DNA from: Iphione sp. A-MEVVRFRX5
Lineage: Eukaryota
Assembly (NCBI GenBank): GCA_976226885.1
Contig: OZ320316.1
Location: forward strand, 28,520,001-28,584,000
Length of the DNA: 64,000 nt
Reading direction: 5' to 3'
Part shown: one piece after another, positions 3,001-37,399 of the stretch
Layout of the letters: every line of letters starts with the position of its first letter
Numbering within the stretch: position 1 is the stretch's first letter
Translations under genes and position numbers: made by a program
Notes under the pieces: generated by a model
Seen by the model: the letters and a program-made list of their open reading frames with translations, nothing else
Told to the model about the DNA's origin: nothing
Databases searched by the model: none

Positions 3001-3335
3001 TGGTCCTGCACTGTTTCGTAACACCTATCAAACGACTCTGCTGTTTAACACAACAGCTACTCCCGTCTGTAGTCCCGTCGGGGTGTCAGGCGACTTTGGC
3101 GGCCCATGCAGCCAGCTTGGTCTCGCCTGGGTCTTCAGATGATTCTTTTCCTATAGGAGGACGTGAACAACCGTTGTCCCCTGTTGGTCGAACCTGCGGG
3201 GGATAAGAGTGACACTGTGTGCGCAGCATGGTGCATCCCGTTGGATGCTCCTCAAATGGCTTCTTATAGGTGCCAAGTGGGGGAGAGTGACCCCGCGAGT
3301 GGAGCTCTCTAAAATGAAATACATGTATGTGATAG

Positions 3336-3466
3336 ATACAGCACGAGGGCGTGCATGTATGCGTTATATTGGCACGGTTGGGGCATTGCTGCACGAGACG
3401 CAGTCGAGTGTGGCAATTCCCCAACCGTGACAATGTAACGCATACATGCACGCCCAAGTGCTGTAT
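3336..3466. repeat. Long inverted repeat (hairpin) upstream of the Crypton ORF
   Basis: 54-nt arms at 3336-3389 and 3413-3466 with 5 mismatches; 23-nt loop. Confidence 0.9.
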
Positions 3467-3634
3467 GTAGCTTAAAGCAAGGGCGCCAATTTGGGCGTTC
3501 AGTCGGCCTATCCAATGAAGCATGTAACCAATTAACGACAAGCTTGCATTTTAAAAACAAGAAAAACCACGTGGGCCCTAACCGTTTCACGCCCCTACCC
3601 GTCCTTACTTCAGTCCCTACTGAGAAGCCCAACT

Positions 3635-5320
3635 ATGGACTTCAACGACATCCCAAATTTTGAGATCGAGCTCGATTTATGCACTCAAGCAGATCAATTG
3701 GAAAAAGAATATTTCTCTCAGAGTCAGCAGTCCAATCAGGAAGATGATGATCAGTCTTCAAGATTTGCACCAGTGCAATCAGAGCACGAATTTAAGGCAA
3801 TTTTAGCTTCAAGAATTCCAAAAAACACTCAGCAATCGTCCAACTGGGCCCACAATATGTATAGAGAGTGGAGGACCTGGAGGAACGGTCACAGCAAATC
3901 ACATTTCGACAAGAATTGGCCAGTTCCTGCACTTACCACTGACAAGCTTGACTTACTGGACTACTGGTTGGCACGCTTCGTGACAGAAATCAGGAAGCAA
4001 GATCACGAGGACTATCCTCCAGGTGGGTTCATTTTCATCACTTTTTATATAAACCAAGTGGGGTGGGGGACCCTTAACGCTCTGAAAATTGAATGTATGT
4101 ATCATATTATTTCAGGTACACTCACCAACATAGCCGCCTCGATCCAGAGGTATATGAGGGATGTCCTGGGTCGTGCTGATATCTGGCTACTTAAGAAAGA
4201 TCAACCCCAATTCAAGATGTTCCGCGATGCATTGGACGCCCGGCGTAAGGTCCTCATTGCTCAAGGCATAGGCGCTCACACCAATCGTGCTGATCCCATA
4301 TCAATTGACGATGAAACAGAACTCTGGGAGAGTGGGGTGATCGGATTCCATTCAGCGCAGGCTCTGTCATATGCGTGCTATCTGTACAATTGTAAAATCT
4401 TCGGGTTCAGGGCCCGCGATGAACATGCTAACCTTGTTGTCGAGCAATTTTCCTTTGGAAGGGAGCGTGACGGTTCAGAGTTTCTGCAGTTTAATGGACG
4501 TCTTGCAAAGACAATTACTGGAAAACTCAACTCCAAATGTAATCCTAGGTTGGTGAAGCATTATGGCCAGCCCCACAATGAAAGGTGCTTGGTCAAGTTA
4601 TTTAGGAAGTATTTGGATTGTGTACCCAAATCAGGCCGATTCTACCGCCGTCCGTTAGCAAACGTCAACAATCAAGTAGTTTTCAGTGTTCAGCACGTAG
4701 GGGTGAACAAATTGTCACAATACATGACCAGCATGTTTCAAGCAGCAGGGATCGATATGGAAGGCCGCAATATTAGTGGCCATAGTGGTAAGGTTGCATG
4801 TTGTACGACTCTTTACGAGCGGCAATTTGATGAACAAGCCATTACCTCGCGTAGTGGACATCGCTCTAATGCTGTACGCTTGTACAAGAGACCTTCCCTG
4901 GACCTTGAGAAACGTATAAGCGATTCACTCCAGCCCCCACCACCCAAAACAGCAAAAACATGCACGGTCACCAAATCCACAGAACTCAATGACGTACAAC
5001 ACACCCCAATGCAGCCCAAACCCTCAACCTCTACAGCAGCGCACTCCACTCCCCTACAAACCCCCAAGTCAAATTCACCCCCCCCCCCAGTAATGCCAGT
5101 GAGCCCGATCACCCCGTACACGTCACACGAATCCCTTGGCCACAATTCTTCAAACACCCCACCTACACACACTTCCACAGACCAAGTAGTCTCCCCAGCA
5201 CAGGGCACCCTTCACCTAGCGTCCTTGATTGATACAAAAATGTTTACAGTCGTGGTCCCAAGTGACGTTTTCCAAGTCGCCATTCTCAAGGATGGAAAGA
5301 AAGTAGTCGTTCAGATCTAA
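3635..5320 (+). CDS. Crypton-type tyrosine recombinase (DUF3504 / KCTD1-ZMYM-QRICH1-like), probably with one stop-free intron at 4023-4115 (about 530 aa after splicing)
   Basis: Motifs IPKNTQQSSNWA, LDYWLARFVTEIRK..DYPP, FGFRARDEH (catalytic R), GHSGK (HxxR position), GHRS and VRLYKR (catalytic Y). Removing GT(4023)..TTTCAG(4115), 93 nt, gives DYPPGTLTNI, matching the family YPPxTL motif. Pro/Ser/Thr-rich C-terminal tail. Confidence 0.85.
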   Translation: MDFNDIPNFEIELDLCTQADQLEKEYFSQSQQSNQEDDDQSSRFAPVQSEHEFKAILASRIPKNTQQSSNWAHNMYREWRTWRNGHSKSHFDKNWPVPALTTDKLDLLDYWLARFVTEIRKQDHEDYPPGGFIFITFYINQVGWGTLNALKIECMYHIISGTLTNIAASIQRYMRDVLGRADIWLLKKDQPQFKMFRDALDARRKVLIAQGIGAHTNRADPISIDDETELWESGVIGFHSAQALSYACYLYNCKIFGFRARDEHANLVVEQFSFGRERDGSEFLQFNGRLAKTITGKLNSKCNPRLVKHYGQPHNERCLVKLFRKYLDCVPKSGRFYRRPLANVNNQVVFSVQHVGVNKLSQYMTSMFQAAGIDMEGRNISGHSGKVACCTTLYERQFDEQAITSRSGHRSNAVRLYKRPSLDLEKRISDSLQPPPPKTAKTCTVTKSTELNDVQHTPMQPKPSTSTAAHSTPLQTPKSNSPPPPVMPVSPITPYTSHESLGHNSSNTPPTHTSTDQVVSPAQGTLHLASLIDTKMFTVVVPSDVFQVAILKDGKKVVVQI

Positions 5321-7344: not shown

Positions 7345-10083
7345 AGGGAGGAGGGGTAATGATTTACTATTAGAAAATGTGATGATGTATATAAGGGCAC
7401 GACACAATGTTATAATAGAACATTATACACTATAATGATGTTATTTTTATAAAATATTCATGTTTTTCCCAGTTTATCAACGTATTTGGTATTTCCTGTG
7501 CCTCTGGTCTCTCCTCGGCGTGTGACACATTGTTCTCACAGGTAAACATTCATTTATATTTTATACAACGCATATTCATATTATTGTCGCTTTACTATAG
7601 TCCAGTAAAACCCTCGTTAAAGAAGCAATGTTGTTATCCAGAACAAAGGTAATCGTTTTACAGTAAAAATGAATTGGTTCGAGCCCCGTTATTTCTTCAT
7701 CTGTTGAGCTTACAGCAGCTTTCCACATAGCTATTAGTATCCCAGATATTTTGCGTACGGTTACCCATTAACGATAGACTCATCCCGTTGACCATGTTCT
7801 CATGTACAATTGTTTTTATCCCTTAAAGGTTTACGGGAGCAAAAACAAAAAAGACCTTGGAATTGTCCTTCAAAGAGGTAAGTTTCAGAACCAGTTTAGT
7901 ACCCTATTATATAAGTACTTATATAGGCTCTATGGACCCCGTTAAGCGAGATTTTGACAGTCTAATGAACCTTCCCCTAATTTCTATGTGCCAACTGTCT
8001 GTAGGGTCACTGAAGGGAGATATGAAGACAGAGATAACAAAGCATTGCAGAGACTACAATAAGAAAAATGCTGAGACTTTCAAAATCCACATACTGATAC
8101 AAAATCATTTTGACCCCTGTGTTGTCAGAAAGCACCAGAAAATGTTTCTCTCTTCCAGCAGCTGGTCAATTTTTATATTTATTGTTTCACCATGTATGGG
8201 TCAACAAGCGATGATAAAAACCTTTGAATATATCCATGGCACTGAATGATATAGTCAACTACGCATGCTATCTTTACAGGCTTGCTTATCATGACTCTAG
8301 CAGTGCTCCCGAGTTTAGCACTTTACGTCAACAGTGAACCAATCTTTCGATTACTCGGCCAGGACCCAACGGTTGCAAAGTAAAGACAAATATTCACACA
8401 GTTCCTTTAATTGAGAATATTCAGAGGTAACGCTATGGGTATATACCATAACAGAATTTAATTTCAGAATAACAGAGTTATATTTAAACACAGATTGAAA
8501 CTCTCCTTTGTCTCAAGAAGGTTTTACTTCAACAATAATTTCCTTTTCAATATTTTGCCACTTTTGAAAAGGTTTTCCCGAGGTAATGTTGAGAATATTT
8601 TCTCTTCAGATTGGCCGGTGATTATATGCTGATTTTTATACCGGGAACAGTGGTAAATAGCGTGTGATTTTGACGAATCTATTGATTTTGCATGAAATTG
8701 AAATGGTTTTCGGCATGTCATACTTATACTCTACTGAGTTCATTTCGTCTTTGCTGAATCTGTTTCAGTGCTTCTACATTTATATAACGCTTTTGAAGTA
8801 CATTCAATGTCAGGTGAGTAGGTTTCCTCAAGTAATTACAGCTGTTTGTCATAATCGACTGGCAAAGCGAGAAGTCCAGTTACGAAAAGAAAGTTGATTT
8901 TGATTGAAATTAATGTAATATCATGTACTGTACAATTTAAAGAGGATCTCTGCAGTACAATATACATGGGTAGGTCTGTGGTACAAGGATATGTGGTAAA
9001 GTTATGAATATGTACATGTATACTGATATGTAATCACTTACGTCTCCAGAATATAATCACACCAACATTGATTATCGGAGCCGTTGCTAATGCCTTCAAT
9101 GCAGTAATGCATTATCTTCTGCTTTATGTTGCAAACTACAGTACAACGTAAGTGTTTAGCAATTTTTAGATATTTAAATTGCATACGGTTAACTAAACAG
9201 TGAATTCTATGCCGACAGTATATTTTATTATTCTTAGAGGCCACACGGATCCACAAGATGAATTAAAGTAAGAAAATCGCAGAAATCGTCCAATTTATTG
9301 GCAGTCAATGCAACATTAGAAATTACATGAGAGCTACATTCACTGCCAGCGTGTAACATTGTCGCTGTTTTGTTACCATATCCAGTGGATCGGCAATTTC
9401 AATGCTGTGTAGCTACATCCTACTCTTGCTGCTCACAATAGCATACATCGTATGTTCTGGCCTGTATAAGGAAACATGGAGTGGTAAGGAGAAATCATTT
9501 TATTCACATGCAGCCCGTGCATTGGGATGTATCGGTAATATTAGGTCCTACATTGAATTAAACATTTTCTATTTTCCTTACACATGGCAGATTATTTTTC
9601 CAGTGCTGTAACATCACAGAATATTCTCACAGATCTATATGGAACTGAAGTAAAATTAGGAGGCATGTATAAACGGGATAAAATATATTGTTTTCTTTGC
9701 TTATTCTTGAGGGCATTAGAAATGATCAATAGTAGACTAAATATAAAAATGTAATTTGTATGGTAGGTTGGAATGTCGAATGTCTACAAAAGTGGGGCCA
9801 ATTCAGTAATCTTGCCGTCTTTGGTCTGCTGATGATCTGTGTAGAATGGTGGGCCTTTGAATTTGGCATTTTCCTGGCAGGTAAGTATACCAGGCAATCA
9901 TAGTAAAAGGGGAAATTGTATCCAAAATCATTCACGATGCCTATAACCAAAGAGAACGAAGTAATTTGAATGGAACAGTAAATCAATATGCCAGCCAGGC
10001 TCGGTGCCCAAATTCATGAAGAGGCACGGTACATGCATAAACCAAGTGTGGAAAAAACAGTTAAATATAAATGTACATGTATG

Positions 10084-10133
<50 letters not shown>

Positions 10134-13100
10134 AAGGACAGTAATAGCTAATGTCAAGCTTGTAAAATACACTGTATTATTCTAATCGTACTTTTTACAT
10201 CTGATTACATGGAACGTGTTGAAAAAGAAGAATATAAATTGACACTTTTATATATTCACTCATGTGGCATTGACAATAATCTGCAGTGAATCAAATGCGT
10301 TACAATATCGTTCAAACAAGCAGCTAAAAGGGGAATTTTAGCCAAATTGTGAATCTTCACAGAAATGACTATATATTTGAGTGAACTGGAGGAGCTGGAT
10401 GTCCCAGTGTAGACAACAAATAATGGATACAAACTTTAAATACACGTGATTTAACTGTCATGACTGGAACAAACATAATTATATGCATATGTATCTAAAC
10501 TGAGAGTGAGGGATCTTTGTCATGGTATGCATACACATTCTTTTACCAAACTGCCAGGTTTGCTGGGTACAGTGGAGCTGGGAGCACAATCTGTGGTATT
10601 CCAAATAGAAATCGTCGCATATATGGTGAGCACATACCGTTATCACTTTTAAATATTCCATCCAATTACTAGACCATAACTCCTTTCATGTATCAACTCT
10701 CAATATATCTATCATGAAAGAAACAGGAATATTCTAAGCGGTAATGACTCAAATCAATGAAAGAAAAATAAACGTCAGAATCTATTCTTTCACGAAAGGT
10801 AGAGGCAAAAGCCAACGGGCACATATCTGTTTTATAGTGATCTGTTTTTCTGTGCCAGAGATTTCGACTTGAGAAAATCAGCAATTTAATCATTAATATA
10901 TTGATAAAGCACAATGATACAGTAAAGAGCAATTGCTCGCCCTATTAAACTGTCCTTATAATAGCATTTATTTATCAAAATATTTGGTGTTGTACAGTGA
11001 TCTGACTATGAACCTTCACATTTCTGTCCAATACATGTATAGTTTCCGTTGGGAAATGGCATTGCTGCTGCTCTCCGAGTCGGTCAGTTCCTTGGTTCTG
11101 GTGATGGAAGGTCCGCCTGTGCTGCTGCCAGAATCGCAATCACTTTCATAGGTAGAATTCTTGAATTCTCATTTAGCAATAGATCGACTTAAGAGCTGGG
11201 TGAATGCCTTCGCGTTGGTGGGGGGTAAACTGAACTCACAAAGGGGTCACATTCATGTGCTGGGTCGTGCGAGTATGGACAAAATCGTTGTCTTGGTAAC
11301 CAAGCTTCCTATGCAGCCACCGTAATGTGTAAAAAAAGGGATGATTATTAAACTACCTTATTTAAAATGGCAGCAGGAAGTATAGAATCGAAAATAGATC
11401 CGTATACTGCTTCATTCCTATCAGACTTCTCACACTAATTTGATTTAAGAAAACTGAATTATTTGACTTTTCAAGTTGGGTTATGTAGTTAATAATTACT
11501 CTATAGCAGAAGGGTAACAATGTGCCATGTGCTTCCATTAGGATGGATGTTTTAAAAAGACATCTACTAGATTACGATTTCTGCTAGTGTAGGGATACAT
11601 TTCGTCGAAGGAGGTTGAAGTCCCCTATCTTTTCCCCTCAATAAATAAAACTAGTGCAAGTAACAAAGGTGCTTGTTATATGATAAGTATAATTATGAAG
11701 AATTACCCTGTGCAATTGCTTTTTAGAAAGTCAGGCAGGTATAGATATAAATATGTATATTCAAGCTAGTTTAAACTTCGTTAAAAGTAGAAAGACGATT
11801 TTGCATAGAGGTCACATGACCTACCATTAGATTTGCCTGCACTGAGTCCTCATAGTTAGCGGGTGAATCAGTAAGGACATTCCTAGCATCCAAAAGAGAA
11901 CTATAGACCTGTACTCTGCATATTTTCCGGGATTTGAAGACAGGATTTCCATAGGGGATAAAACAGAATTGGGAGAAATGATGCGTTGATTCCACACCTC
12001 CTAATATCAGGCCCCCTTTTCCCACGCCCTCGACATTGAACATTATCAAGCAAAGGTCACGTGTTTCAGAAATTTAATCAATACTCCATTACTTCATACG
12101 AATAGAAATATTCCTGCGTTGCATAAGTCGATTAGGTTATGCCTAGAGCAGGGTATGCCTTGTAGAGAAAGCAGTATTGAGACACAATTGTTAATGACAT
12201 ATATATATATATATATATTGGTGAATATCTTTTTTTCTTCATACTATCGTAGCCGTGCTTGGCATCACAATGGGACTGCTGTTAGTGCTTTTACGAGATT
12301 ACCTCCCATACATATTCTCAAATGATCCGTAAGTATACTTGTCGTCCATGATACTGACTCATACTTATATGTCCATACCTTTAAAGTGAAAATACATGTA
12401 GATATTTCATCTCTAGCATTGCAGTAATTTTCAAATGAGCGTTTCTCAAAGAGGTACGATTATCACAAGAACATACCGTTCGGATCAATCTGCAATACGC
12501 CACTTTCATCTTTAAAGGATAACTTAACCGTGTACTAAAGCCACAGATGTATCTCCACGTCCATGTGTCTTTATTGCGGGGGGGGGTTGCAACGACTCTG
12601 TTTGTCAACCTCTTTGACTTATCTTCATATGCCTTCTGACATGATATATAAATTATTGGTTTCGAGAATGTGGCAAAAACAGTGTAGAACTCCAGTGCAG
12701 ACACATTAACTCTGTCATGGGATGTTCCTGCCCATGAATACAGCCTACACACCTCTGACCCTTGTCCTAGTTGAGGGGCTTGTGAAAAAAGTTCCCAACT
12801 CCTAGGGTTTGACCGTCCTCTCTCATAACTGGTTTAAGCAATTTTCCCTTCCTTGTGTAATTACACTGGTATCTATGACTTGGTTGTTTGATCCATATAT
12901 ATACTAGATCTGTGGCACTTGTGCCCTCCCTTTTATATACTCTCCTGTCCTTAAATTGATATGCATAGGGGCCCCTATTACCCATAGGGGCTGTATGCAT
13001 GCATGAGCACTAAGGGGTTCCTCCAATGGTAAAAATGGATTAGTGTTGATACAGTGAGTCCCTCCATGTACCAATGGGGAAGAAAGGGCAGTGTTGTAGC

Positions 13101-15372
13101 AGTTTCAACCATAATGGTCTCATCATGCACTATGTGGGTTATATTTTGTGTGTGTCCCAGAACAAGTGTAGTGGGACTGGTTTGTTGTGGCCACTGCCAA
13201 TTGTAGTGTAAATGGGGGGATGAAGAGCAGAGACAATTTGTGATGGCTCCATTGTAGACAATCTATTTGTGTCTTGAACTTATCCTGGTCTCTTCACGGA
13301 CCAATAAATGCATGTATGTATCCAAGTCTCATGGTAAACTTCCTGGCTTACCCACTGAAAAGGTGTAACCCCTCCAGAAGATGGGCTTAGTGGGAAGCCA
13401 GAGGAACCCCACCTGTGGAACACTATAAGGGTCAAATATATCCCAATCCTTTGATAAAATATATGACAATTGGGGAGAGGTGTGTATTTTTGAGGCAACC
13501 ATGGCTATAGACTAAAGCCCCCTTCCAATTTCCTGGGATCTTTAAATGATGAAATTATTATTGATTGTACTTCAAAATATGTTTATAGCGAAATCATCGA
13601 GGAGGCGTCCCACATCTTTCCAATCATGGGTATCTACATGCTGTTTGATAGCGTCGCGGTAAGCATCTATATCTTCTTCCTTTCACAAAACCACGCAGGA
13701 TTTAAGAAAGGAGTACCAAAAAGGCCTAAAGGCAACATTCCGTGTTATGGGCACCGCTTGTATTAGATTACTTTGTCTCTTTAATGTTGAAGAGATCATT
13801 CCTCAATTCATAAAATTACTTTAGGGAACCTGTGCCGGGATATTCCGTGGATGTGGAAATCAGACGCTGGGCGCTGCTATTGTCTGCTTCGGTTACTCTG
13901 TGGCCCTGTCTATCGGAGTGCCTGTCATGTTCATGACTCCAGCGCGGCTCCTGGGTAAGTACCATATGTATATATGTGCCTGTATATGCATACGTATCCT
14001 AACGCAACACAAGATAGACAAGAGAATAATTTTTCAGGTATTTTTCTATCTAGCTCTAATAAGTCATCATAAAAGCAAAGTACCATCCACCTATACCTTT
14101 CATAACTACAGACTCCATACTCCAGAAAATAGTTGTTCTCTCTTCTTGCTCGAGCTCGGATAAATACCGTGGAAAGCTTCATTGGATCTTCATTCCTGTG
14201 TCTATATAATGGCTAGAAAACAAAGGTCTATAGTTCCAGTCACCATTTCAGTGGCAAATAACCCATATGGTTTTTTTTTGATAGGATTATGGGCTAGCTT
14301 TTCCCTGGCTCTGATGCTGGAATCTGCTATCTTCTTCGTGCTTGTCATGAGAACAGACTGGGACAAACAAGCAAAACAGGTGAATTATTACATTGCAGTG
14401 TGATTCATTTAAGGGATGGTTGACTGTAAGCCTTGAGCAAGCATAAAAGGCAGTACACTGTTCTACTTGCTGGATGGTGTTTGCACAACAATGTCTTTTA
14501 ATGAGGACATTATGTTGTCATGCTGACCGATGCACATACATTTGTAAATGAAGTACATGTACTTACAAGTTGACACAGGGGTTGGATTCGGCGAAAGAGA
14601 CAGAGTATATATATATAGAACAAACCATTGCAGCAGAATACATGTGGCAAAGTAGTGAACGAAACGCACTAAAGCTACATTTAAATCTATACAATGCAGA
14701 ATATCTAGTGAATGCGAGGAGGTTTCATGGGTTGGGTAGTTGTCTCTTCCTCAATTCCTTGCCTTTTGTGTTCCCTTCTATGTGCAAATCTCTCTTCCCT
14801 CCCTCTTTTTCTCACCGTCTTTCTTACCACATCTCTTGCCAACCTTTTCGGGTGTCTGGTTATTCCTCTAAAACATTTCACCAACCATACTATGAGGATA
14901 TTGATGCACATCCACTTCTGGTTTGCAGGCTTATGAACGTATTGGTTTGGACGACAGAATCGCACAAGAAAATGCGGAGAAACGTGGTACGTGTTTCCGT
15001 ACCTTTCATGAAATTACCGATCTCATTAAAACAGCAAAATTGCCTTTATACTTCGTCTTCCTTTCGCTGTCTATTACAGCACTCCTTTCGTCGACTGCCG
15101 GATTGGATAAGACGCAAGAGGGCACTGCCACTGTGTTTGTTGAGGATTACGGCGACAAAATTCCCGTCAAGGTGGTCGTCCGACGCCGCCTGGTGGCTTT
15201 CGCCATCATGATGGCTATCCTCATCTTCGGTATAATTCTACGAGTGAAAGTGATCCACATAGATTATGAAAATCAGATCGATATCTGGTCTTCCCCTACA
15301 CCTCCGTATAACACGACACAGTCTTATATTGTTACCGAATTGACGACTGTCCTCAAGGCCACGACATTATAG
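6462..15372 (+). CDS. SLC47A1: MATE-family multidrug and toxin extrusion transporter (SLC47A-like), 17 coding exons, 632 aa
   Basis: Exons 6462-6650, 7017-7118, 7473-7541, 7829-7877, 8280-8379, 8610-8652, 8769-8813, 9050-9147, 9386-9483, 9767-9880, 10558-10625, 11043-11151, 12253-12328, 13589-13658, 13825-13954, 14285-14379, 14929-15372. All are GT-AG and phase-compatible, summing to 1899 nt. Motifs FCGHLGKLELDSVALA, GLSSACDTLFSQ, CVEWWAFEFG, LGTVELGAQS, RVGQFLGSGD, GIFRGCGNQ, RRRL+TM13. AATAAA at 15381. The symbol indicates family only. Confidence 0.95.
7301..7334. repeat. (AG)n microsatellite in MATE intron
   Basis: Direct reading. Confidence 0.9.
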
Positions 15373-26852: not shown

Positions 26853-26946
26853 AGTAGTGTAGTAGGAGTGACCCTTAGACACGAATTCCGATGTCACATG
26901 ACCACATTCCAATGTCACATGATCTATGACGTCACAGTCACATGAC
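26853..26946 (+). repeat. Polinton left terminal inverted repeat
   Basis: Matches the reverse complement of 47993-48086 with 5 mismatches in 94 bp. Confidence 0.95.
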
Positions 26947-27654
26947 CATACGGAATATCCCATATGTGGGAAGGGGGAGAGGCAATAACGAGATCAAACA
27001 CTCCATAGATAGGGGTGGAAGGTAGGTAAGAGAGACCGTGTATATGTCAAGTGCACACCATGATAAGAAGATTACGTGTGTTATATAGATATCAGCAACA
27101 CTGTTTCTAGACTAGCTAGAGCTTAATGCTTGGTATCATCTAAAAGCCCTTGACGAGACCTTTCCAACGTGCTATTATACAACCTTCTATCACTAATATC
27201 AGACCTTCAAACAGCATTCACAACATAGCATACCTTTTCAACCTAGCCATGACTGAGAATACAAAAAAGAGACAATGAAGAAATAAAGGATCGATATATG
27301 GAATGAAATCTATTCAAGGTAGTATTACTCACCAAGTATTTACACTATAATACGATGTGTAGCCTATGATGGTATACGAATACTAAAATGTATCGAAATC
27401 AAAACTACATTACATATCGTCTCGTCTTTCTGATAACCAGAAGGTCATATAAGGAACGTTAATGACAAGGTAAATAGCAACGTCAAGTGAGTAGACATGG
27501 AGTAAATAGTTGGTGAGATGAACCAGACAAGTCCAAAGAGGGTTATACAATAAAAACCATCAAAATATATCTAAAAAGAATGATGATATGAGCGTATACA
27601 CACACACACACACAGAACAAACGAGAGAACACCACCAAGAGAATATCAGTTGAA

Positions 27655-28033
27655 ATGAGAAAGAAGATGGCAGAGAAGCAAATAGAAGAGTTAAAAAAAT
27701 GGATACAAGAGAAGGGAGGCACAGACAAAGCAGAGAAGAAAGGAAAGAAAAAGTTAATAGAGGCAATGAAGATGATGAAGAAACTGGAGAGCACAAAAAA
27801 GAAGATGAAAAGAAACAAGGAAAAGAAAGCAAGAAAAGAAAAGAGGAAACAACTGGTATCACTTACGAGAGAAGAGGTAAAGTTTTGATAAAATAATAGA
27901 TACAGGTACAGAACAAAGACGCTTCTATTATGAGATGAAGGATGAAAGTCTAAAGACTTGTATATTGTTATTTTTAGAGAGCAATACTCGCGGAATTCAT
28001 GGAAGGATATGAAGTGGACGGCACCGACGGTAA

Positions 28034-28069
<36 letters not shown>

Positions 28070-31000
28070 CAGCAATGACGACAGTAGTGGATATGGAGCG
28101 CAACAGTCAAGCAATGAGGATGATGAGGATGAGGATGACGAGGATGATGAGGATGAGGATGAGGATGGATTAAGAGCTGAAAGTATAATGATACAAAGTG
28201 AAGTAAGTCACAAAATAAAGTCATTAAGTACAATCCAATATTTATTTCATAATAAAGACAAGATCACACGTTACATATAGATTAAGTAGATGGTCATTTC
28301 GAGATAATTGATTGTATATATATATATAGAATGAATAAATGTTAATAGATAGCATATATGTAGAATCAAGATATAGAATAGACGAGTAATAGATTGTCGA
28401 GGTAAAATAAAAAAAATCAATATATATAATATGTAGCCCAGTTTGTTTTTTCTGGTTTGATTTGGTCTTTCGTTTTTCTTCCCCGGCGGTTACAGCAAAC
28501 AGGTGCAGGTGCGATAGATGATCGGGCAACACCATCACGACCACCACCATCAGCAGCACGAGGAGTAGTAGCAACACCATCAACATCTAGAACTCCAGCA
28601 CCATCATCATCATCATCATATGGTAGGTCGGATACAGCAGTTGCCAGCACTAGTGGAGTCAACACCGGAAGGAAGAAGAGGAAAAGGACCGTCACACATC
28701 CTGTAGAAGTAAGAAAAGAGATCATGAATATATAGCCGTATATAATATAAACAAAACAGATATTAAAAAATCTCAAGTACATATTTTTATCATCATCATA
28801 TTATTATTATGATCCTTTGTTTTTGTTTACATTTTTTAGAATATAGAAGTAGCAGGAGCAGCAGCAGCAGGAGCAGCAGAATCATGCCCGTATTGCAAGA
28901 GAACATTCAAGTACAAGACGGCCATGTCAAAACATGCAGCAGGATGTAAAGAAAAAATGAAATTACGATGTGAAGTATGTCAGAGGAGGTTTAACACAGT
29001 GAGCCAGAAAAAAACACATATGAGCAGGTTTCATAAGAAGAAGAGGCCCACATCATTCAAATGCAGAAAATGCAATGTCATAGTGAATTCAAAGAGGGAA
29101 TTATACCTCCACGATGGTGAACAACACGGTGGAGGAAACGATGAAGAAGAACTTCAACGTCCACCATGGACACCAGGAAATGAGCCATGGGCGAGAATGG
29201 GTACGGAAGAGGCAAGAGAGTTCGAAAGGACATATAATGCAAACAGGAGACATATCCTAGCTCGTCACAGGTTCGGTGATATATCAGCGACTTACAATTT
29301 CCCCACAAACAACTTGGCAGACGGTGGAGTGGAATTCGAGAGACACATGGACGAAATATACAGAAATGAGCAGAGAGCATTCAAGGTAAATGTCGGTTTT
29401 GGTTCGATGCTATGTCATGTCGAGTCTATTCAATTTAGATATTTTGTCCCCTATGGAAACAACAGTGTGTTCACGGAACCCATGTTTGTGTCGAGACGGG
29501 AAGATGTAGACAACGTGGTGTCGAGACTGAAGAGCATAGACCCAGAGAAATATTTCTTGGAGGACAGACCAGATACGAAATGGGGGTCTGAAGGGGTGAT
29601 GAACGTAGTGTACTTTGTATGGCACACATCTTATCCATTGGGAAGAGGAGGAGGATTTCTACCGAGATTCCTGAAGGGCAGACCATACTTGATCACGTTA
29701 GACCATCACATCGACGGAAGTGCATTGACAGACGAACTGTGTGCTTTCAGATGCTTGGCATTACTCGACAGAGAGCATCATAGATTAGAAGAGAAGTCTG
29801 AGGAATACTATCATCAATGGAGAGTCTTCATGGCAAGAAAACATGGCATGACACTCCCACTCGAAGCAAGAGACTACGAAGGTGTGGAGAGCAATCAACT
29901 CTGCGATCTGGAAGAATGCTTCAGCGTGAGCATATATGTGTACGAATTGACCAAGGAGGAGACAGTAATCATACGACATAAACCATTTCACAAATTCACC
30001 AAAACCATGCACTTAAATGTGTATCAGGGACACTTATCTTTCATCACAGACTTTGAACAGTATGCTCAAAAGTTCGAGTGTGTATTATGCAGGCGTTGCT
30101 TTAAACGAAGATTCAACATAATACGCCACATGAAGGTGTGTCCACTGAGGACATCATATACTTACAAAGGTGGGTACTACTCGAACCCACAAACATTGTT
30201 TGAAGAGATGGAGACGATAGGTGTGAACGTACCTCATCAAGACAGGTTATACAAAGATTTTGCCGTCTTTGATTGCGAGGCCATGTTAAGGGCGATGCCG
30301 GAAGGTGAGTGCCCCAAGTTGAAATGGATAAGAAAACACGAAGTGATATCAGTCGCAGTATGTAGTAACGTTCCCGGATTCGAACAACCAGAATGTTTTG
30401 TGTCAGAAGATATAGAAGAATTGATGGATGAGATGGTAACTTACCTAGGGAGAATACAAGCAGCAGCTCTTGTTAGAGCAAAAGAGAAATGGGAAGATGC
30501 ATTAGCCGAGTTAGACAGAATGATTGTTTCAGAGCGGGAGCATGCATCCGCAGGACCCGTCGTCGTCGAAACGAGCAACACGAACAACATAGACATGGAT
30601 GGCAGAGAAGAGGAAGATGAGGAAGAAGAAGAAGAGGAAGAGGAAGAGGAAGAAGATGAAGGAAAAGGAGATCCACACATGCGAATGCTGAAGCGACTAG
30701 TTAAGATAGCACAGAGGTTCACACACTACATCAGTGCCCTACCTGTATTGGGTTTCAATTCAGGTAAATATGATCTGAATGTGTTGAAAGGAGCGCTCCT
30801 CAGGCGGCTGAAAAAACAAGAAGATGATGAAGACGACGATGATGAAGATGAAGAAAAGGAATTATTTGTGATCAAACGTGGAAATACATATGTAACAGTG
30901 GATAACAAAAAATTGAAATTCCTCGATATCTCTCAGTATTTAACCCCGGGGGTATCTTATGCCAAATTTCTGAAAGCGTACGACGTGCAAGTCGAGAAGG

Positions 31001-33743
31001 GCATATTCTGTTATGAATACTTAGACGGTCCAGAGAGACTAGCGGAGACACGGCTACCGGACCATGAAGCCTTCTACTCGTCGCTGAAGGGTAGTAACAT
31101 AACGAGAGACGAGTACGAAGAGCTTCAGAGAACATGGATAAGGGAGGACATGCATTCACTTCGGGACTTGTTAGTCTACTACAACAAGTTAGACGTCAGA
31201 CCGTTCGTGGAAGGTGTTAGCCGGCTACAAAAGTTCTACTTCGAGCGGGGTATGGACATATTCAAGGTAGCGGTGTCTGCCCCTGGAGTGGCGAGGAGAT
31301 TACTGTTCCAGTCCGCCCTGAGTGGTGGCGCAAGATTCCCAACGTTTGGCACAAAAGAGGAAGACATGTACCAGACGTTTAGAAAGAACATCGTGGGAGG
31401 TCCAGCCATCGTATTCACAAGGGCACACGAGAAAGGTGTGACAAACATCCGAGATTCGAGGAACAAATGCCAGTCCATCATCGGGTTAGACGCAAATTCC
31501 CTTTACCTGTGCTGCATCGGGAAACCGCATGCCACGGGCACGTACGTGAGGAGGAGGGCCAACACGGGATTCAGACGGGAGAAAGCTCCACTGTCCATCA
31601 CAAGCGTGATATGGTTGGAATGGGAAGCGAAGACGAGGTCCATCACCATCACACATGCCCAGAACAGGTTCGAGGGAGAAGTGTGGGTAGGTCCATACAG
31701 AGTGGACGGCATCGCACTCGCCACAAGAACAGTGTTCGAGTTCAATGGATGCTACTATCATGGCCACCAGTGTCTGAAAGGAAAGACAAGAGAAGCAGAG
31801 AGAAAGAGACGAGAGAGACGCACAAAAGTAAGAAGAAAGTACATCGAGAGTCGAGGATACTCACTAGTGGCCATGGAAGAATGCCGCTTCGAAAGCATGT
31901 TGAAGGAGAACGAAGAACTCAGAGAACACGCCGAAAGATACACTCCCACATTCAGTGCCACTCACAGAGGAAAAGTAACAGAGCAACAGATCATGGAAGG
32001 CGTATGCGACGGATCTCTATTTGGGGCAGTAGAAGTAGACATACGAGTTCCAGAGAGATGGCCACCGGGAATGGAACGTGACAAGAGTCCCTCTGTCTAC
32101 TTTGGAGAGATGTGTCCTCTCTTCGGGAACACCTCGGTCAGTTTCGACCACATAGGAGAACACATGAAACAGCACGTGAGACAGCAGCGCATGTCTCAGA
32201 GACCGAGAAGGTTACTGGTCGGTGTCATGAGCGCCAAGAAGACCCTGATCATGACACCGCTTTTAAAGTGGTACGTCGAACACGGTCTCGTTGTCACAAA
32301 AGTATACCAGACGATCGAGTTCATCCCCCGAGAATGCTTCAAGAGCTTTGTCGACGACGTGACGGAAGCGAGAAGAAGGGGTGACTGCGACACAGACATG
32401 ACCATCATCGCAGACACCATGAAGTTGATCGGGAACTCTGCATATGGAGGCATCATCATGCAGAAAGAAAAACAACACGCGGTGAATTATTACACGAGCC
32501 CGAACCAAGCGGTGATGGCGGTGAACTCTCCACGATTCAGACAAGTGACAGAATTGAAAGGTCTGTACAAAGTGGAGATGGCCAAACCGAGAATAACACT
32601 GGACATGCCTGTGTATGTGGGGTTCTCGATACTCCAATACGCGAAATTGATCATGTTGTCGTTCTATTACGACTGTGTCGACAGGTTGATGGACCAATCC
32701 AAGTTCGAATACGTGACAATGGACACAGACAGCGCCTATATCGCACTGGCCAGTCCTTCGATCACAGGAGCAATGACGGAAGAAGGCAAGCGCACATACG
32801 AAAGAGACACACTGGACAACTGTGCCGACAACAAGCAACCCACCTGGTTCATGAGGGAGTGTTGTGCCACGCACAGAAGATACGATCGCCGCGTTCCGGG
32901 TATTATGAAGGAAGAAGCGAAGGGTGAGAAGATCATTGCATTAACCAGCAAGACATACATCATGGTCAACAGAGACACGGAACCTCTCACCATAAAGATG
33001 AGTTGTAAAGGTATATCGAAAGCTCTCGTGACAGATCCAGAACAAACATATGAGAGTGTGCTGGCAACGCGACAGAGTAGAACGGGTAGAAACACAGGAT
33101 TCAGAGCATGGTCAGGAACAGTGTGCACGTACGAGCTAGTGAGGCAAGGATTTACCTACTTCTATGCAAAACGAAGAGTGCACGACGACGGTGTGCACAC
33201 TTCACCTTTAGAACTGACACTCTGTCCCTGGGAAGACGGTGCCGGGGACTATGATATCATCATCAACCATCCGTGGCACGTATTGAGTCCCACATACAAA
33301 TGTGTTATGGGAGATGGATTCTTGTTGGCGGAGCACATGTTTCTCTACAAGATGGCAATGTACCATGGAGAAGACGACGTGGCAGAGGCAATCAAACGGA
33401 GTGTGGACAGAACAGAATACAGAGCGTACGCCGAGATGGTGGTGAAAGGAAACGAATGGAAAGGTGGAGCTCAATTTACGGCCATGACTGAAGTGACCAG
33501 GATAAAGTCGAGAGCTTTAGGAGTGATTGCAACATCGGCTCTGAACCACACGAAACTCATTGTCTATGCAAACAGAGATAAATATTGGGGGGTGGGAATG
33601 GACGAGGCGATGGTGATGATATCTACCCCAGAAGAATTCAGGGGGAGGAACAGACTGGGTGAGATCTGGGACGACATCAGACGTGAATTGAACAGCAGCA
33701 GCAGCACCACCAGCGACAGTAGGAGCATCAGCATCATTAGCTG

Positions 33744-33744
<1 letters not shown>
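27655..33744 (+). CDS. polB: Protein-primed family B DNA polymerase with C2H2 fingers, Vsr-like insertion and C-terminal NADAR domain; predicted exons 27655-27876, 27978-28202, 28496-28708, 28840-33744 (about 1854 aa)
   Basis: Exo I VFDCEA, Exo II GFNSGKYD, Exo III YNKLDV, Pol A GLDANSLY, Pol B KLIGNSAYG, Pol C MDTDS, end motif YAKRRVHDDGVHTSPL. Three GT-AG phase-0 introns join the upstream ORFs in frame. The core ORF is certain; the splicing is predicted. Confidence 0.93.
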
Positions 33745-33778
<34 letters not shown>

Positions 33779-33779
<1 letters not shown>

Positions 33780-34420
33780 TGGAAATAGTGATTCCGGAAT
33801 ACACCTTTGCTACTCCCTCCACCATCGTAGTGAGTGGGGCCACGTCTTCGGGCAAGACGCGTTTCGTGATACAGCTAATCAAGAACAGGCGAGTGTTATT
33901 ACAGCACCCAGTACCAGAGAGGATAGTCTATTGTTATGGCGTGTGGCAGAATGGGTTCGAAGACCTGGTGGGTGAAGTCGAGTTTCGTGAAGGCGCCAAC
34001 GTCGATGACATCAAACATCCAGGAGGCACATTACTCATTATAGATGACCTCATGGATGATGTAGTGCAAAATGATAAGGTTCGCAACTTGTTTACACGTG
34101 GTTCACATCACGATCGGATTACTGTTATCTACATTAATCAGAACCTCTTCTGTCAGGGTAAGTGCGCTAGGTCGATTGCCCTGAACTCGCAGTACATGGT
34201 TCTGTTTAGAAACCCACGTGACATTCAACAGATTGCACGTCTGGGTAGTCAACTGGGCATGCCGGAAGTGAAGTCAGCATATATAGACGCGACCAAAGAA
34301 CCTTACGGATGCTTGGTGATCGATCTTCACCCCTCCAACAACACGGAAGTGAAATTGACTAGTCATATTTTTGGTGAAGAAGAAGAAGACCACCACCCTC
34401 TCGTCTGGTACAAACAGTGA
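33779..34420 (+). CDS. A32/FtsK-like DNA packaging ATPase
   Basis: Walker A GATSSGKT, Walker B LLIIDDL, FTRGSHHDRITVIYINQNLF. Confidence 0.95.
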
Positions 34421-34422
34421 TC

Positions 34423-34440
34423 ATGTCATCATCGTCATCA

Positions 34441-34472
<32 letters not shown>

Positions 34473-35055
34473 GTCCGCACCGTCTTGTTTGAGAGAGCAT
34501 GCCAGTTTTATCCGCCTCTTACTCACCAGTCCTAGTCGTATCCAGATCGAGGCACTTTTCGACACGGCAACCACGGGTCAGCTGGATGCCCTCGCTGAGA
34601 TCGTTCACAATTTACTAGTACTCCCAGTAAGAGAAGAAGTCAGGCAATACGCTATAAAGAGGCGGAGGCTCTTGTCCAGACTGGTGAGTAACAAGGTGTC
34701 ACATAGAACGAAAGCAGCACTCGTCAGCAAACACTACCGCCAGTTACTGCACCTACTCAGGGCTGTAGAGGACGAGCTGTGGAATCTGACAGAAGGTGCG
34801 TCNNNNNNNNNNNNNNNNNNNNNNNNNNNNNNNNNNNNNNNNNNNNNNNNNNNNNNNNNNNNNNNNNNNNNNNNNNNNNNNNNNNNNNNNNNNNNNNNNN
34901 NNNNNNNNNNNNNNNNNNNNNNNNNNNNNNNNNNNNNNNATGCAGCCGGTCCACCACCACCTCCTCCACCACCGGCAGCAGGAGCAGCAGCAGGAGGAGC
35001 AGCAGCACTACTACCACTACTACCAGCATATTTTTCACCAGCACTGGCAGCATGA
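34423..35055 (+). CDS. Conserved Polinton small protein downstream of the ATPase (interrupted by the N gap)
   Basis: Helical ATTGQLDALAEIVHNLL..LLSRL segment of the kind seen after Polinton ATPases; hydrophobic GG..LLPLLP C-terminus; stop overlaps the next ATG (ATGA, 35052-55). Frame across the gap is uncertain. Confidence 0.65.
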
Positions 35056-35429
35056 GAAAACTAATATGTATACCTCAAGAGCGATATCAGGTTCTAGTAC
35101 GACATGGGGTTGAAAAAGAAGAAGAAGAAGAAAAATTAGTAACAACACCACCAGGGAATGACAACAACAACAACAACGGCAGAAGCGAAGCGGAGGGGGG
35201 TGCCATTGCGAGCGGCAGTGTGAGTGGTGGCGGCGGCGGCGGCGGTGGCGGCGGCAGCGTGAGCGGTGGCGGCAGTGGCGTGAGCGGCAGTGGCAGTGGA
35301 ATAAACACATCAATGCGAAGAAGGAGAAGGAAAAGGAGTGTCACACCACCACCACCTGGCATACCTGTAGAGAAGAAGAAAAAGAAGAAAAAACTACTCG
35401 ATTGGACTGAGGGATGGACAAGTATTTAA
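35052..35429 (+). CDS. Small Gly-rich, basic Polinton protein upstream of integrase (125 aa)
   Basis: MRKLICIPQERYQVL..PPPPGIP..KKKK..W; overlaps the integrase start. Confidence 0.65.
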   Translation: MRKLICIPQERYQVLVRHGVEKEEEEEKLVTTPPGNDNNNNNGRSEAEGGAIASGSVSGGGGGGGGGGSVSGGGSGVSGSGSGINTSMRRRRRKRSVTPPPPGIPVEKKKKKKKLLDWTEGWTSI

Positions 35430-36556
35430 CTCGGATCTACTACGACCCGCGTCATCCCGCTGCATTTGGAGGTGCCCGTCAACTGTACAAGCACTCCAGG
35501 GCGGCCGGACGACCGTATACCCTACGACAGGTGAAGGAATGGTTGCGTGGTCAGGAGACTTACACACTCTTTGCTCCTTCTCGTACTAGTGCCGCTTTGA
35601 AGCGACCTCGTGTGATTGTGTCAGACAAATTCGACCAGTTTGACGCAGACACAGCCAACATGAACGAATGGCGTGATTCTAACAAAGGAATGGGCTATTT
35701 CCTTGTTGTGATTGATATTTTCACGAGGTATGCATGGACCAGTCCATTGAAGAACCTATCGGCTAAAGACACACTGTCCGCTCTTCGTTCTGTGATGGCT
35801 GACCAGAAGTGTCGGGTGTTACGCACGGATGGTGGAAGTGAATTCAATAACCGGTGGGTTGCTAGCTATTTGAAACAGACACATATTAAGCATGTTGTCA
35901 CTAGAAATGAAGTCAAAGCTAATTATGCCGAACGCCTAATCAAGACACTCAAAACACGCCTCATGCGAGACATGTACCACCGTCAGTCACGGGAGTGGGT
36001 GAGTCGCCTTGCACACTTCACAGAGGCGTATAACCACCGTCGCCATCGCTCGATCGGTACTACGCCAGCTCTTGCCGCCTCTGACGACACCGACAAGGTT
36101 GAGTTGTGGCAACGACAGTACGGACGTCTCCCACCTACACCACCTACCACTAGTGGAAGAAGAAGAATAATAATACCCTATCGGTTAGAAGTGGGAGACG
36201 TCGTCCGTTTGGCTCGCTTTCGACGTCCTTTCAGTCGGGCTTATGATGAACAGTGGACACATGAACTTTTTGTTGTTGTAGCCCGTAGATGTCAGCAAGG
36301 TATACCCCAATATACCATCAAGTCGTGGAATAACGAAGAGATCGATGGCCGTTTCTATGAGGAGGAGTTGATCAAGGTCCGAGTGAACGACCAGACAACC
36401 TACAAGATCCAGAAGGTCTTACGTAAGAAAAAAGTGGACGGGGTCAACGGCTATGTTGTGCACTGGCTCGGTTGGCCCAGTCAGTACGACTCGTGGATCA
36501 GTGCAGATCAGATGCGCTCCATCGGTGCTCCTCTTTCTCCTTCACCTGTTGATTAA
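35414..36556 (+). CDS. int: Retroviral-like (c-)integrase with C-terminal chromodomain
   Basis: D (FDADTANM), LVVIDIFTRY, D (RTDGGSEF), E (NYAERLIKTLK); chromodomain YKIQKVL..YVVHWLGWPSQYDSWI. Confidence 0.95.
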   Translation: MDKYLTRIYYDPRHPAAFGGARQLYKHSRAAGRPYTLRQVKEWLRGQETYTLFAPSRTSAALKRPRVIVSDKFDQFDADTANMNEWRDSNKGMGYFLVVIDIFTRYAWTSPLKNLSAKDTLSALRSVMADQKCRVLRTDGGSEFNNRWVASYLKQTHIKHVVTRNEVKANYAERLIKTLKTRLMRDMYHRQSREWVSRLAHFTEAYNHRRHRSIGTTPALAASDDTDKVELWQRQYGRLPPTPPTTSGRRRIIIPYRLEVGDVVRLARFRRPFSRAYDEQWTHELFVVVARRCQQGIPQYTIKSWNNEEIDGRFYEEELIKVRVNDQTTYKIQKVLRKKKVDGVNGYVVHWLGWPSQYDSWISADQMRSIGAPLSPSPVD

Positions 36557-36987
36557 TGGACGTGTATCTACTTGCCACCCCTCTACTGAGCAGGCTCGTC
36601 TACCCACAGAACACAGCTGCCGACTTTGCAGTCGAACTCACGCGCCCCCTCGAATTGGTCAGTGGATGGGAATGTGCCTTGGTCGAGGCCTACTTCACTA
36701 CTCGTCTTCGTACTACTCGGGACGTGGTCGTTTGTACGGATTTGGTCAAACGTAACTACGTCCTCGTCAGTCGGGAACCACAACCCACCGTGCGTGTGGT
36801 GTGTACATCATCTACGGAGTTTAGGCGTCCGTGGTACATGCGGGTGAGTTCAAGCCGAATCGAACGTTTCTGGGTTTATTGCTCTTATCTATCAGAGGAG
36901 GAGAAGGAGGAGGGGGCAGAGGAGCCTCATATCAGACGTGTCGTGTTTCATCTCAGACCAGTCAGATCGTCGATACTGTCCACGTAA
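36556..36987 (+). CDS. Minor capsid protein (penton-like single jelly roll), compact 143 aa
   Basis: YPQNTAADFAVELTRPLELVSGWECALVE N-terminus; VVCTDLV, FRRPWYMRV and VFHLRP strands typical of Polinton mCP. Confidence 0.8.
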   Translation: MDVYLLATPLLSRLVYPQNTAADFAVELTRPLELVSGWECALVEAYFTTRLRTTRDVVVCTDLVKRNYVLVSREPQPTVRVVCTSSTEFRRPWYMRVSSSRIERFWVYCSYLSEEEKEEGAEEPHIRRVVFHLRPVRSSILST

Positions 36988-36991
36988 AGGG

Positions 36992-37387
36992 ATGAACTAC
37001 GTGCCCTACGTACCCCACTCGGATGCCTTTACCCACACTGTGCGGAAACGGTCTCACTACATCGGAAGGGGCGGTGGACCCCCTCTTAAGCTGGTGACGC
37101 CTACAGAACAGTCGGTGGAGAGAGCCAAGGCCAACCTCACGAAGAATATACCTCCTACCATTGGACCCAGGGCCACCGTTAGTATCAGCGCCGGTGTACG
37201 GAGACGTACTCCTCCTCTTCCTCCTATGAGCCCCGTTCAACCTCGAGGGCGGAAGCGGGCAGCAACAACAACAACAACAACTCCAATCAAGAAGAAGAAG
37301 AAGAAGAAGACAACTTCCTCTCCAAAGACAATGCAGAAAGGGAAGAAGACGACGACGATGATCCGTCGTAGATACCGTCGTCATTAA
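36992..37387 (+). CDS. Basic, core-like protein (131 aa)
   Basis: LKLVTPTEQSVERAKANL motif plus K/R-rich tail; located between mCP and MCP. Confidence 0.7.
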   Translation: MNYVPYVPHSDAFTHTVRKRSHYIGRGGGPPLKLVTPTEQSVERAKANLTKNIPPTIGPRATVSISAGVRRRTPPLPPMSPVQPRGRKRAATTTTTTPIKKKKKKKTTSSPKTMQKGKKTTTMIRRRYRRH

Positions 37388-37399
37388 AAAAAAACAAAG

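Follow-up and report, generated by a model that had tools for sequence, protein, structure and literature searches.

A probable four-exon, spliced polymerase gene in a Maverick/Polinton element of Iphione sp.

The stretch analysed (the window) consists of 64,000 nucleotides of contig OZ320316.1 from Iphione sp. A-MEVVRFRX5 (assembly GCA_976226885.1, positions 28,520,001 to 28,584,000, forward strand) and contains a Maverick/Polinton element of 21.2 kb. The element carries a gene for a protein-primed family B polymerase (pPolB), whose long open reading frame (ORF) is preceded by three short ones. The original prediction was that these four pieces are exons of one spliced gene. The sequence analysis presented here argues that this is probably the case and that pPolB is a host-spliced gene with three phase-0 introns. 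The predicted parts of the gene, in window coordinates, are as follows.

27655..27876, + strand: coding part of exon 1, 74 codons, Lys/Glu/Met-rich, with ATGs at 27655 and 27667 and a donor ranking 6 of 89
27877..27977, + strand: intron 1, 101 nt, phase 0, with the weakest acceptor
27978..28202, + strand: exon 2, a short acidic-hydrophobic stretch, poly-Ser and an Asp/Glu tract, with an in-frame ATG at 27999
28203..28495, + strand: intron 2, 293 nt, phase 0, with the best acceptor of the region
28496..28708, + strand: exon 3, opening with Q-x-G-x-G, followed by a Pro/Ser/Ala linker and a basic hexapeptide (28670-28687) resembling a nuclear localization signal (NLS)
28709..28839, + strand: intron 3, 131 nt, phase 0, in which the acceptor TAG is the stop that bounds the pPolB frame
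28840..33744, + strand: exon 4, 1634 codons, encoding three zinc fingers, terminal protein, vOTU, a finger, exonuclease-polymerase and NADAR
28882..28947, + strand: zinc finger 1, straddling the first ATG and kept in the relatives P0001-P0004; strand-strand-helix, pLDDT of the block 85-93
29122..29136, + strand: Q-x-G-x-G motif after finger 3 and ahead of the terminal-protein domain, a candidate cleavage site with a putative function
29740..30033, + strand: vOTU catalytic Cys to His (residues 301 and 398), invariant or near-invariant in 70 aligned sequences

The coordinates, GT and AG ends and phase-0 frames that had been predicted are all present in the sequence. The three upstream exons measure 222, 225 and 213 nt; each is open in the predicted frame, as is the sequence from 28840 onward. 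Together they supply 220 residues, and the whole N-terminal extension was computed as 248 codons, in line with the predicted length of about 250 amino acids. Introns 1, 2 and 3 start with GTAAAG, GTAAGT and GTAAGA and end with TTTTTAG, TTACAG and TTTTTAG, respectively. All are in phase 0 and contain stops in all three frames, and the length of none is a multiple of three; their GC content is 21-28% compared with 36-50% in the exons. The GT-AG ends, GTRAG-type donors and pyrimidine tracts are features of U2 spliceosomal introns; a clear branch-point consensus was not found in introns 1 and 3. The Lys/Glu segment, the acidic Ser/Asp/Glu tract and the NLS-like hexapeptide described earlier were recovered in exons 1, 2 and 3, respectively. 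In the region 27440-27515 there is a TATA-like word at about 27450 followed by donor-like sites at 27470, 27487 and 27513, one of which is the second best of the region; this may be a non-coding first exon.

Splice sites were scored over 27300-28930 with approximate weight matrices. Among 181 AGs the acceptors of the model take ranks 1, 2 and 4, and among 89 GTs its donors take ranks 4, 6 and 8. When a dynamic search, blind to these sites, looked for the best three-intron chain from an ATG to pPolB, it returned exactly the same six sites with a score of 21.4 bits. This score was reached in none of 300 dinucleotide shuffles, a harsh null because 299 of them yielded no chain, and in two of 88 real flank windows, of which the top one contains apparent true host exons. 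Codon log-odds trained on the core ORFs of the element are positive for each of the four exon pieces in its predicted frame and negative for the three introns in every frame, with the caveats that a second frame of exon 1 scores equally and that exon 3 is barely positive. Host exons were noted at 14285-14379 (without a Pfam or PDB match) and 14929-14986, with a translation that presumably resembles a MATE transporter in its C-terminal part.

The first ATG of the long ORF, at 28924, falls within the helix of zinc finger 1, which is conserved in four of the six close relatives found (P0001-P0004). There is no ATG between acceptor 3 and the middle of this finger, and the pPolB frame opens only at 28840. 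With the ATG inside a conserved finger and the frame opening at acceptor 3, a plain start at this ATG does not account well for the gene. The finger had been placed ahead of this ATG as a whole; only a part of it lies upstream. Without splicing, translation would have to begin at the near-cognate ATA at 28843 or at the ATG within finger 1, and the upstream pieces would be chance frames or short ORFs of the 'Oncoid' kind. The ATA has an A at -3 and a G at +4, in many relatives the start is an ATG just in front of the fingers, and small motif-bearing 'Oncoid' ORFs upstream of adintovirus PolB have been reported by Starrett et al. (PMC8502044). Even so, this explanation is very unlikely, since it leaves three GC-poor, stop-rich spacers with top-ranked ends and a single phase unexplained, the exon 3 frame is without an ATG, exons 1-3 are without LxCxE or paired CxxC, and relatives show spliced layouts.

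The leader shares with the Oncoid and adenovirus E1A genes that it is an acidic, motif-rich, zinc-associated coding region upstream of PolB. The latter are free-standing, whereas the leader is fused in frame to pPolB, and inspection of the translations of exons 1-3 revealed no LxCxE motif, CR1 match or paired CxxC. An Oncoid/E1A-like identity, defined as LxCxE and a CK2 motif beside paired CxxC in a free-standing ORF, was rejected, as the leader lacks this combination. A likeness of exon 1 to the SAP/HeH DNA-binding motif was likewise not supported, with no Pfam match at E <= 1 and no match in the atlas. The start of exon 2 resembles a stretch of P0016 by eye only. The suggestion that the N-terminus is a chromatin or transcription module is supported only for the three zinc fingers; exons 1-3 match no family, and such a role would be putative for them.

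The structure of the first 467 residues of the pPolB frame was predicted from a 70-sequence alignment with a mean pLDDT of 90.9. The model has three strand-strand-helix fingers, an alpha/beta domain and then a second domain with Cys301 and His398. A fold search gave weak matches, none at E <= 0.001, to the finger arrays of CTCF and BCL11A, to Dpo4-type polymerases and to the OTU domain of OTUD1 (E 0.037); in the predicted model these fit the layout of terminal protein (TP) and vOTU described by Krupovic et al. (10.1101/2024.03.18.585575). A TP domain followed by a vOTU with Cys and His, the mark of a Polinton TP-vOTU pPolB, is present here, with C301 and H398 conserved. The frame also matches PF03175 above the Pfam cut-off (E 6.5e-7) and shares with the Maverick/Polinton (adintovirus) polymerases the order TP, vOTU, exonuclease, polymerase and an intact Cys/His dyad (10.1101/2024.03.18.585575; PMC8502044). 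It differs from the adintovirus pPolB by three fingers and a predicted 248-amino-acid spliced leader ahead of the TP and by a C-terminal NADAR domain (33319-33690, E 6e-10), the last common to five of the six closest relatives. The Q-x-G-x-G motif occurs twice in the predicted protein, before the TP and as the first five codons of exon 3. Of 115 relatives, 41 have it in the 45 residues that precede the TP, and the 79,415 residues that follow the vOTU contain none.

A metagenome scan gave 80 loci, of which 30 contain the 5' part of pPolB with upstream DNA. Upstream exons were sought in 11 of these 30 and found in five, belonging to three families. The family of L039, L043 and L046 lacks a Met ahead of its fingers, and the frame begins at a conserved AG, with Q-x-G-x-G at the start of the main exon, and up to five phase-0 exons of 48-66 nt upstream encode short acidic-hydrophobic peptides. 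Introns are common to diverged members of this family. The exons show two gaps (one 3-nt event) in 11 comparisons and the introns 50 gaps, 38 of them not divisible by three, in seven comparisons, the pairs not being independent. In L024 a finger-coding first exon is followed by a 551-nt phase-2 intron and the main exon; both parts align in order, with scores of 90 and 150, to a single unbroken frame of L022, its sister with a support of 99. In L006 two mutually similar phase-0 exons precede a Ser-rich/finger exon, the part farther upstream being ambiguous.

Signatures of the same kind were seen in proteins close to the window. P0001 is its sister on the tree (support 99), and the cluster-mate of P0001, P0008, has a run of Phe, Leu, Ser and Pro that closes with a Gln, five residues ahead of the same finger, which reads as a translated pyrimidine tract with CAG in phase 0. 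P0144, the sister of L006, also starts with an apparent translated pyrimidine tract ending in Gln, followed by Ser-rich, acidic and basic segments and a finger, the order of exons 2-4 here. Basic clusters are found in frame before the first finger in P0002, P0004, P0132, P0144 and the L039, L043 and L046 loci. The spliced leader layout, as judged from sequence, is not unique to this element and recurs across lineages.

Other observations were made in these leaders. The adjacent phase-0 exons at L006:2028-2405 are copies of each other, an exon duplication inside a Maverick leader. Acidic-hydrophobic words of the D-x-L-F-x-D kind recur at L039:3875-4830, L043:170-556, L046:236-892 and L006:2028-2405 and presumably resemble activation-domain motifs. 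A strong acceptor lies just upstream of the ATG at L007:879 and L048:1830-1890, which suggests that the 5' untranslated region of pPolB contains an intron there. Two loci, L010 and L028, were rejected as spliced, as the early Met is missing through apparent frameshifts; L051 has no Met before the fingers, and an upstream exon was sought there without being found.

Several results weigh against the four-exon model. With 1.2 bits, acceptor 1 is a weak site, and the model leaves unused the stronger donor-like sequences at 28509, 27487 and 28623. The weakness of this acceptor and the unused donors, together with the in-frame ATG of exon 2 and the well-scoring second frame of exon 1, would suit a partial model in which only intron 3, or introns 2 and 3, are spliced, translation starts in exon 2 or the upstream joining is different or alternative, and exon 1 may be a separate small ORF. 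This is rather unlikely, as the top-scoring chain takes all three introns, every one in phase 0, and exon 1 is open and ends at its donor with a stop four codons beyond.

Among the other adverse results, a comparison of exons 1-3 with the 80 loci and 163 proteins, in which low-complexity sequence was masked, gave no match at E <= 1, so that conservation gives no check on the leader junctions. For exon 1, no homologue was found in Pfam, the protein collection (none of 17 candidates) or the atlas. Scans of viral contigs gave no relative. An automated acceptor test showed no enrichment (four of 30 pPolB loci compared with two of 45 control genes), and a family-wide acceptor at the start of the pPolB frame was rejected; the test missed the L039 family, whose acceptor is pyrimidine-poor. 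Acceptor signatures at the protein level numbered six in 163 with 1.8 expected. In the leader exons of the L039 family non-synonymous changes equal or exceed synonymous ones, so that purifying selection was not seen, and a donor and an acceptor have each disappeared from L046. Q-x-G-x-G is found in only three of 33 leaders. The trait is also patchy: at nine loci an ATG precedes the fingers and the stretch tested lacks an acceptor, and in a quick tree of 50 rows (24 of the 80 loci, 25 of the 163 proteins and the window), with spliced labels assigned manually, the label needs four changes forced by well-supported branches. A single origin of the spliced state is not supported by these changes, which losses could explain.

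From this patchiness, the weak tests and the missing homologues of exons 1-3 it follows that intron 3 is the best supported junction, and very likely a real one, and that the full three-intron model is less well supported. The latter nevertheless remains the probable reading, in agreement with the ranks of the sites, the blind chain search, the finger cut by the first ATG and the comparable leaders in relatives.

The view that Polinton core genes are intronless, stated in the original prediction, holds for vertebrate and nematode Mavericks as far as the accessible text goes. Barreat and Katzourakis (2021) described intact vertebrate Mavericks without introns, in agreement with Kapitonov and Jurka (2006); in their methods, short N-terminal fragments split off by long 'introns' are treated as possible false positives (PMC8097293). 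Widen et al. found the core genes of nematode Mavericks to be intronless and the cargo genes intron-bearing (10.1101/2022.07.12.499685). These elements have the same core genes and termini as the present one, the difference being that their introns occur only in captured cargo. In the accessible portions of Krupovic et al. (2024) and Starrett et al. (2021) neither splicing nor a finger array of pPolB is mentioned (10.1101/2024.03.18.585575; PMC8502044), and those of Jeong et al. and Buck et al. contain nothing on a spliced pPolB. The literature searched yielded no account of a Maverick pPolB leader with spliceosomal introns, though subscription papers, Repbase entries or supplements may hold one, and the spliced leader is apparently unreported. 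With three introns predicted in pPolB, the element would fall outside the definition of a Maverick with intronless core genes.

A parallel exists in the related adenoviruses, where the Ad-pol mRNA is spliced and a replication protein, the pTP of E2B, takes its start codon from an upstream exon. In HAdV-37, pTP is annotated as 13495-13503 joined to 8325-10223, a predicted splice, and the polymerase is listed in the same table as unspliced (PMC2397415). The upstream exon comprises 9 nt and three residues there, compared with 220 residues over three exons here.

The remaining features of the element are as follows.

26853..48086, 21.2 kb: Maverick/Polinton element, with inverted ends starting AGTAGT, identical 6-bp flanks and core genes
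26853..26946, + strand: left terminal inverted repeat, about 94 bp, with five mismatches to the right copy
47993..48086, - strand: right terminal inverted repeat, matched to the left copy
33779..34420, + strand: probable packaging ATPase, with a weak Pox_A32 match (E 0.033) and relatives in 18 loci
35414..36556, + strand: integrase with chromodomain (rve E 8e-9, Chromo E 1e-5)
37400..38830, + strand: probable major capsid gene, presumably so from its position; in several pieces here, the 5' piece with relatives in nine loci, no Pfam match
38811..39350, + strand: probable adenain-like cysteine protease, presumably so from its motifs; relatives in three loci, no Pfam match

The termini with target duplication, the protein-primed family B polymerase and the chromodomain integrase place the element among the Mavericks/Polintons, and the integrase, probable ATPase, inverted ends and 6-bp duplication are shared with adintovirus elements (PMC8502044). 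The capsid gene is broken over several frames around a Gly-rich repeat, through decay or assembly error, and a run of N at about 34800-34940 interrupts a core ORF. Cargo-like regions include an ORF for a protein with a signal peptide and transmembrane segment (41350-42051, +), a membrane-protein-like region on the minus strand (39887-41269) and a Pro/Ser/Thr-rich frame of 861 codons (42185-44770, +); three ORFs scanned in the region 39887-44770 gave no Pfam match. A second, probably spliced gene lies at the right end of the element (47591-46270, minus strand). Its first exon, which in this copy is interrupted by an in-frame stop and weakly matches DUF7432 (E 0.007), ends at a GTAAGT donor at about 47244 and is followed by a phase-2 intron of about 185 nt and an acceptor at 47060. 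The acidic/basic-cluster ORF beyond has a C-x-G-C...Q...H...G-C motif, weakly seen also in L022 and L024; a homologue search with the right-end ORF found none among 82 candidates. Outside the element, a Crypton-like DUF3504/tyrosine-recombinase ORF lies at 3635-5320 and a 67-bp hairpin at 3333-3469.

The state of this copy bears on another explanation, that the introns were gained after integration (as host introners or by decay) or came with a captured host gene fragment fused in front, and lie outside the normal cycle of the element. The capsid gene is broken, the right-end exon has a stop, the spliced labels are scattered over the tree, nematode Mavericks bear intron-containing cargo, and introners invade Maverick-like proviruses of dinoflagellates, whose spliceosomal introns they form (10.1101/2025.03.18.643946). 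Those introners are repeated, transposon-born and mostly post-integration, whereas the introns here are unrelated to each other, AT-rich and confined to the leader. As the three introns share no repeat family, the inverted ends agree at about 95% of positions and are flanked by a perfect target duplication, introns are common to diverged members of the L039 family and the sister of the window has an acceptor signature at the same finger, this explanation is very unlikely.

Under the four-exon model, a host Pol II transcript would be spliced by the major spliceosome at the three phase-0 introns and translated into one polyprotein of about 1850 amino acids. This would comprise, in order, the basic helical exon 1, the acidic exon 2, the linker and NLS-like exon 3, three fingers, TP, vOTU, polymerase and NADAR, the leader supplying the start codon and possibly nuclear import. 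OTU and adenain proteases cut Gly-Gly-type motifs, and either the adenain-like protease or the vOTU of the polyprotein itself may cleave it at Q-x-G-x-G. A cut before the TP would release the terminal protein and a leader/finger piece, a small transcription-factor-like product that could bind DNA while its acidic segment recruits host factors. Krupovic et al. propose a vOTU cleavage between TP and vOTU (10.1101/2024.03.18.585575). The zone before the terminal protein would be fast-evolving, of low complexity and tolerant of intron gain and loss, with phase-0 exons permitting growth by exon duplication.

It is conceivable, if rather doubtful, that a zinc-finger regulator, hidden, spliced and released by a protease, fronts the polymerase polyprotein of many invertebrate Mavericks and acts early, in the manner of E1A. 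Such a regulator would combine acidic activation-like exons, an NLS and a C2H2 array, and its production would depend on host splicing; tissue-specific splicing could then switch the provirus between silence and replication, and its phase-0 mini-exons could evolve by duplication. In routine annotation, the first ATG of the long ORF is taken as the start of a Maverick polymerase. If the four-exon model is true, many of these polymerases would be truncated in databases, copies without an early ATG would have been wrongly taken as decayed, and the rule of an intronless core would not reach these lineages. As in the related adenoviruses, the replication protein would depend on the host spliceosome for its expression, and the leader would offer a candidate regulator for the switching on of the provirus.
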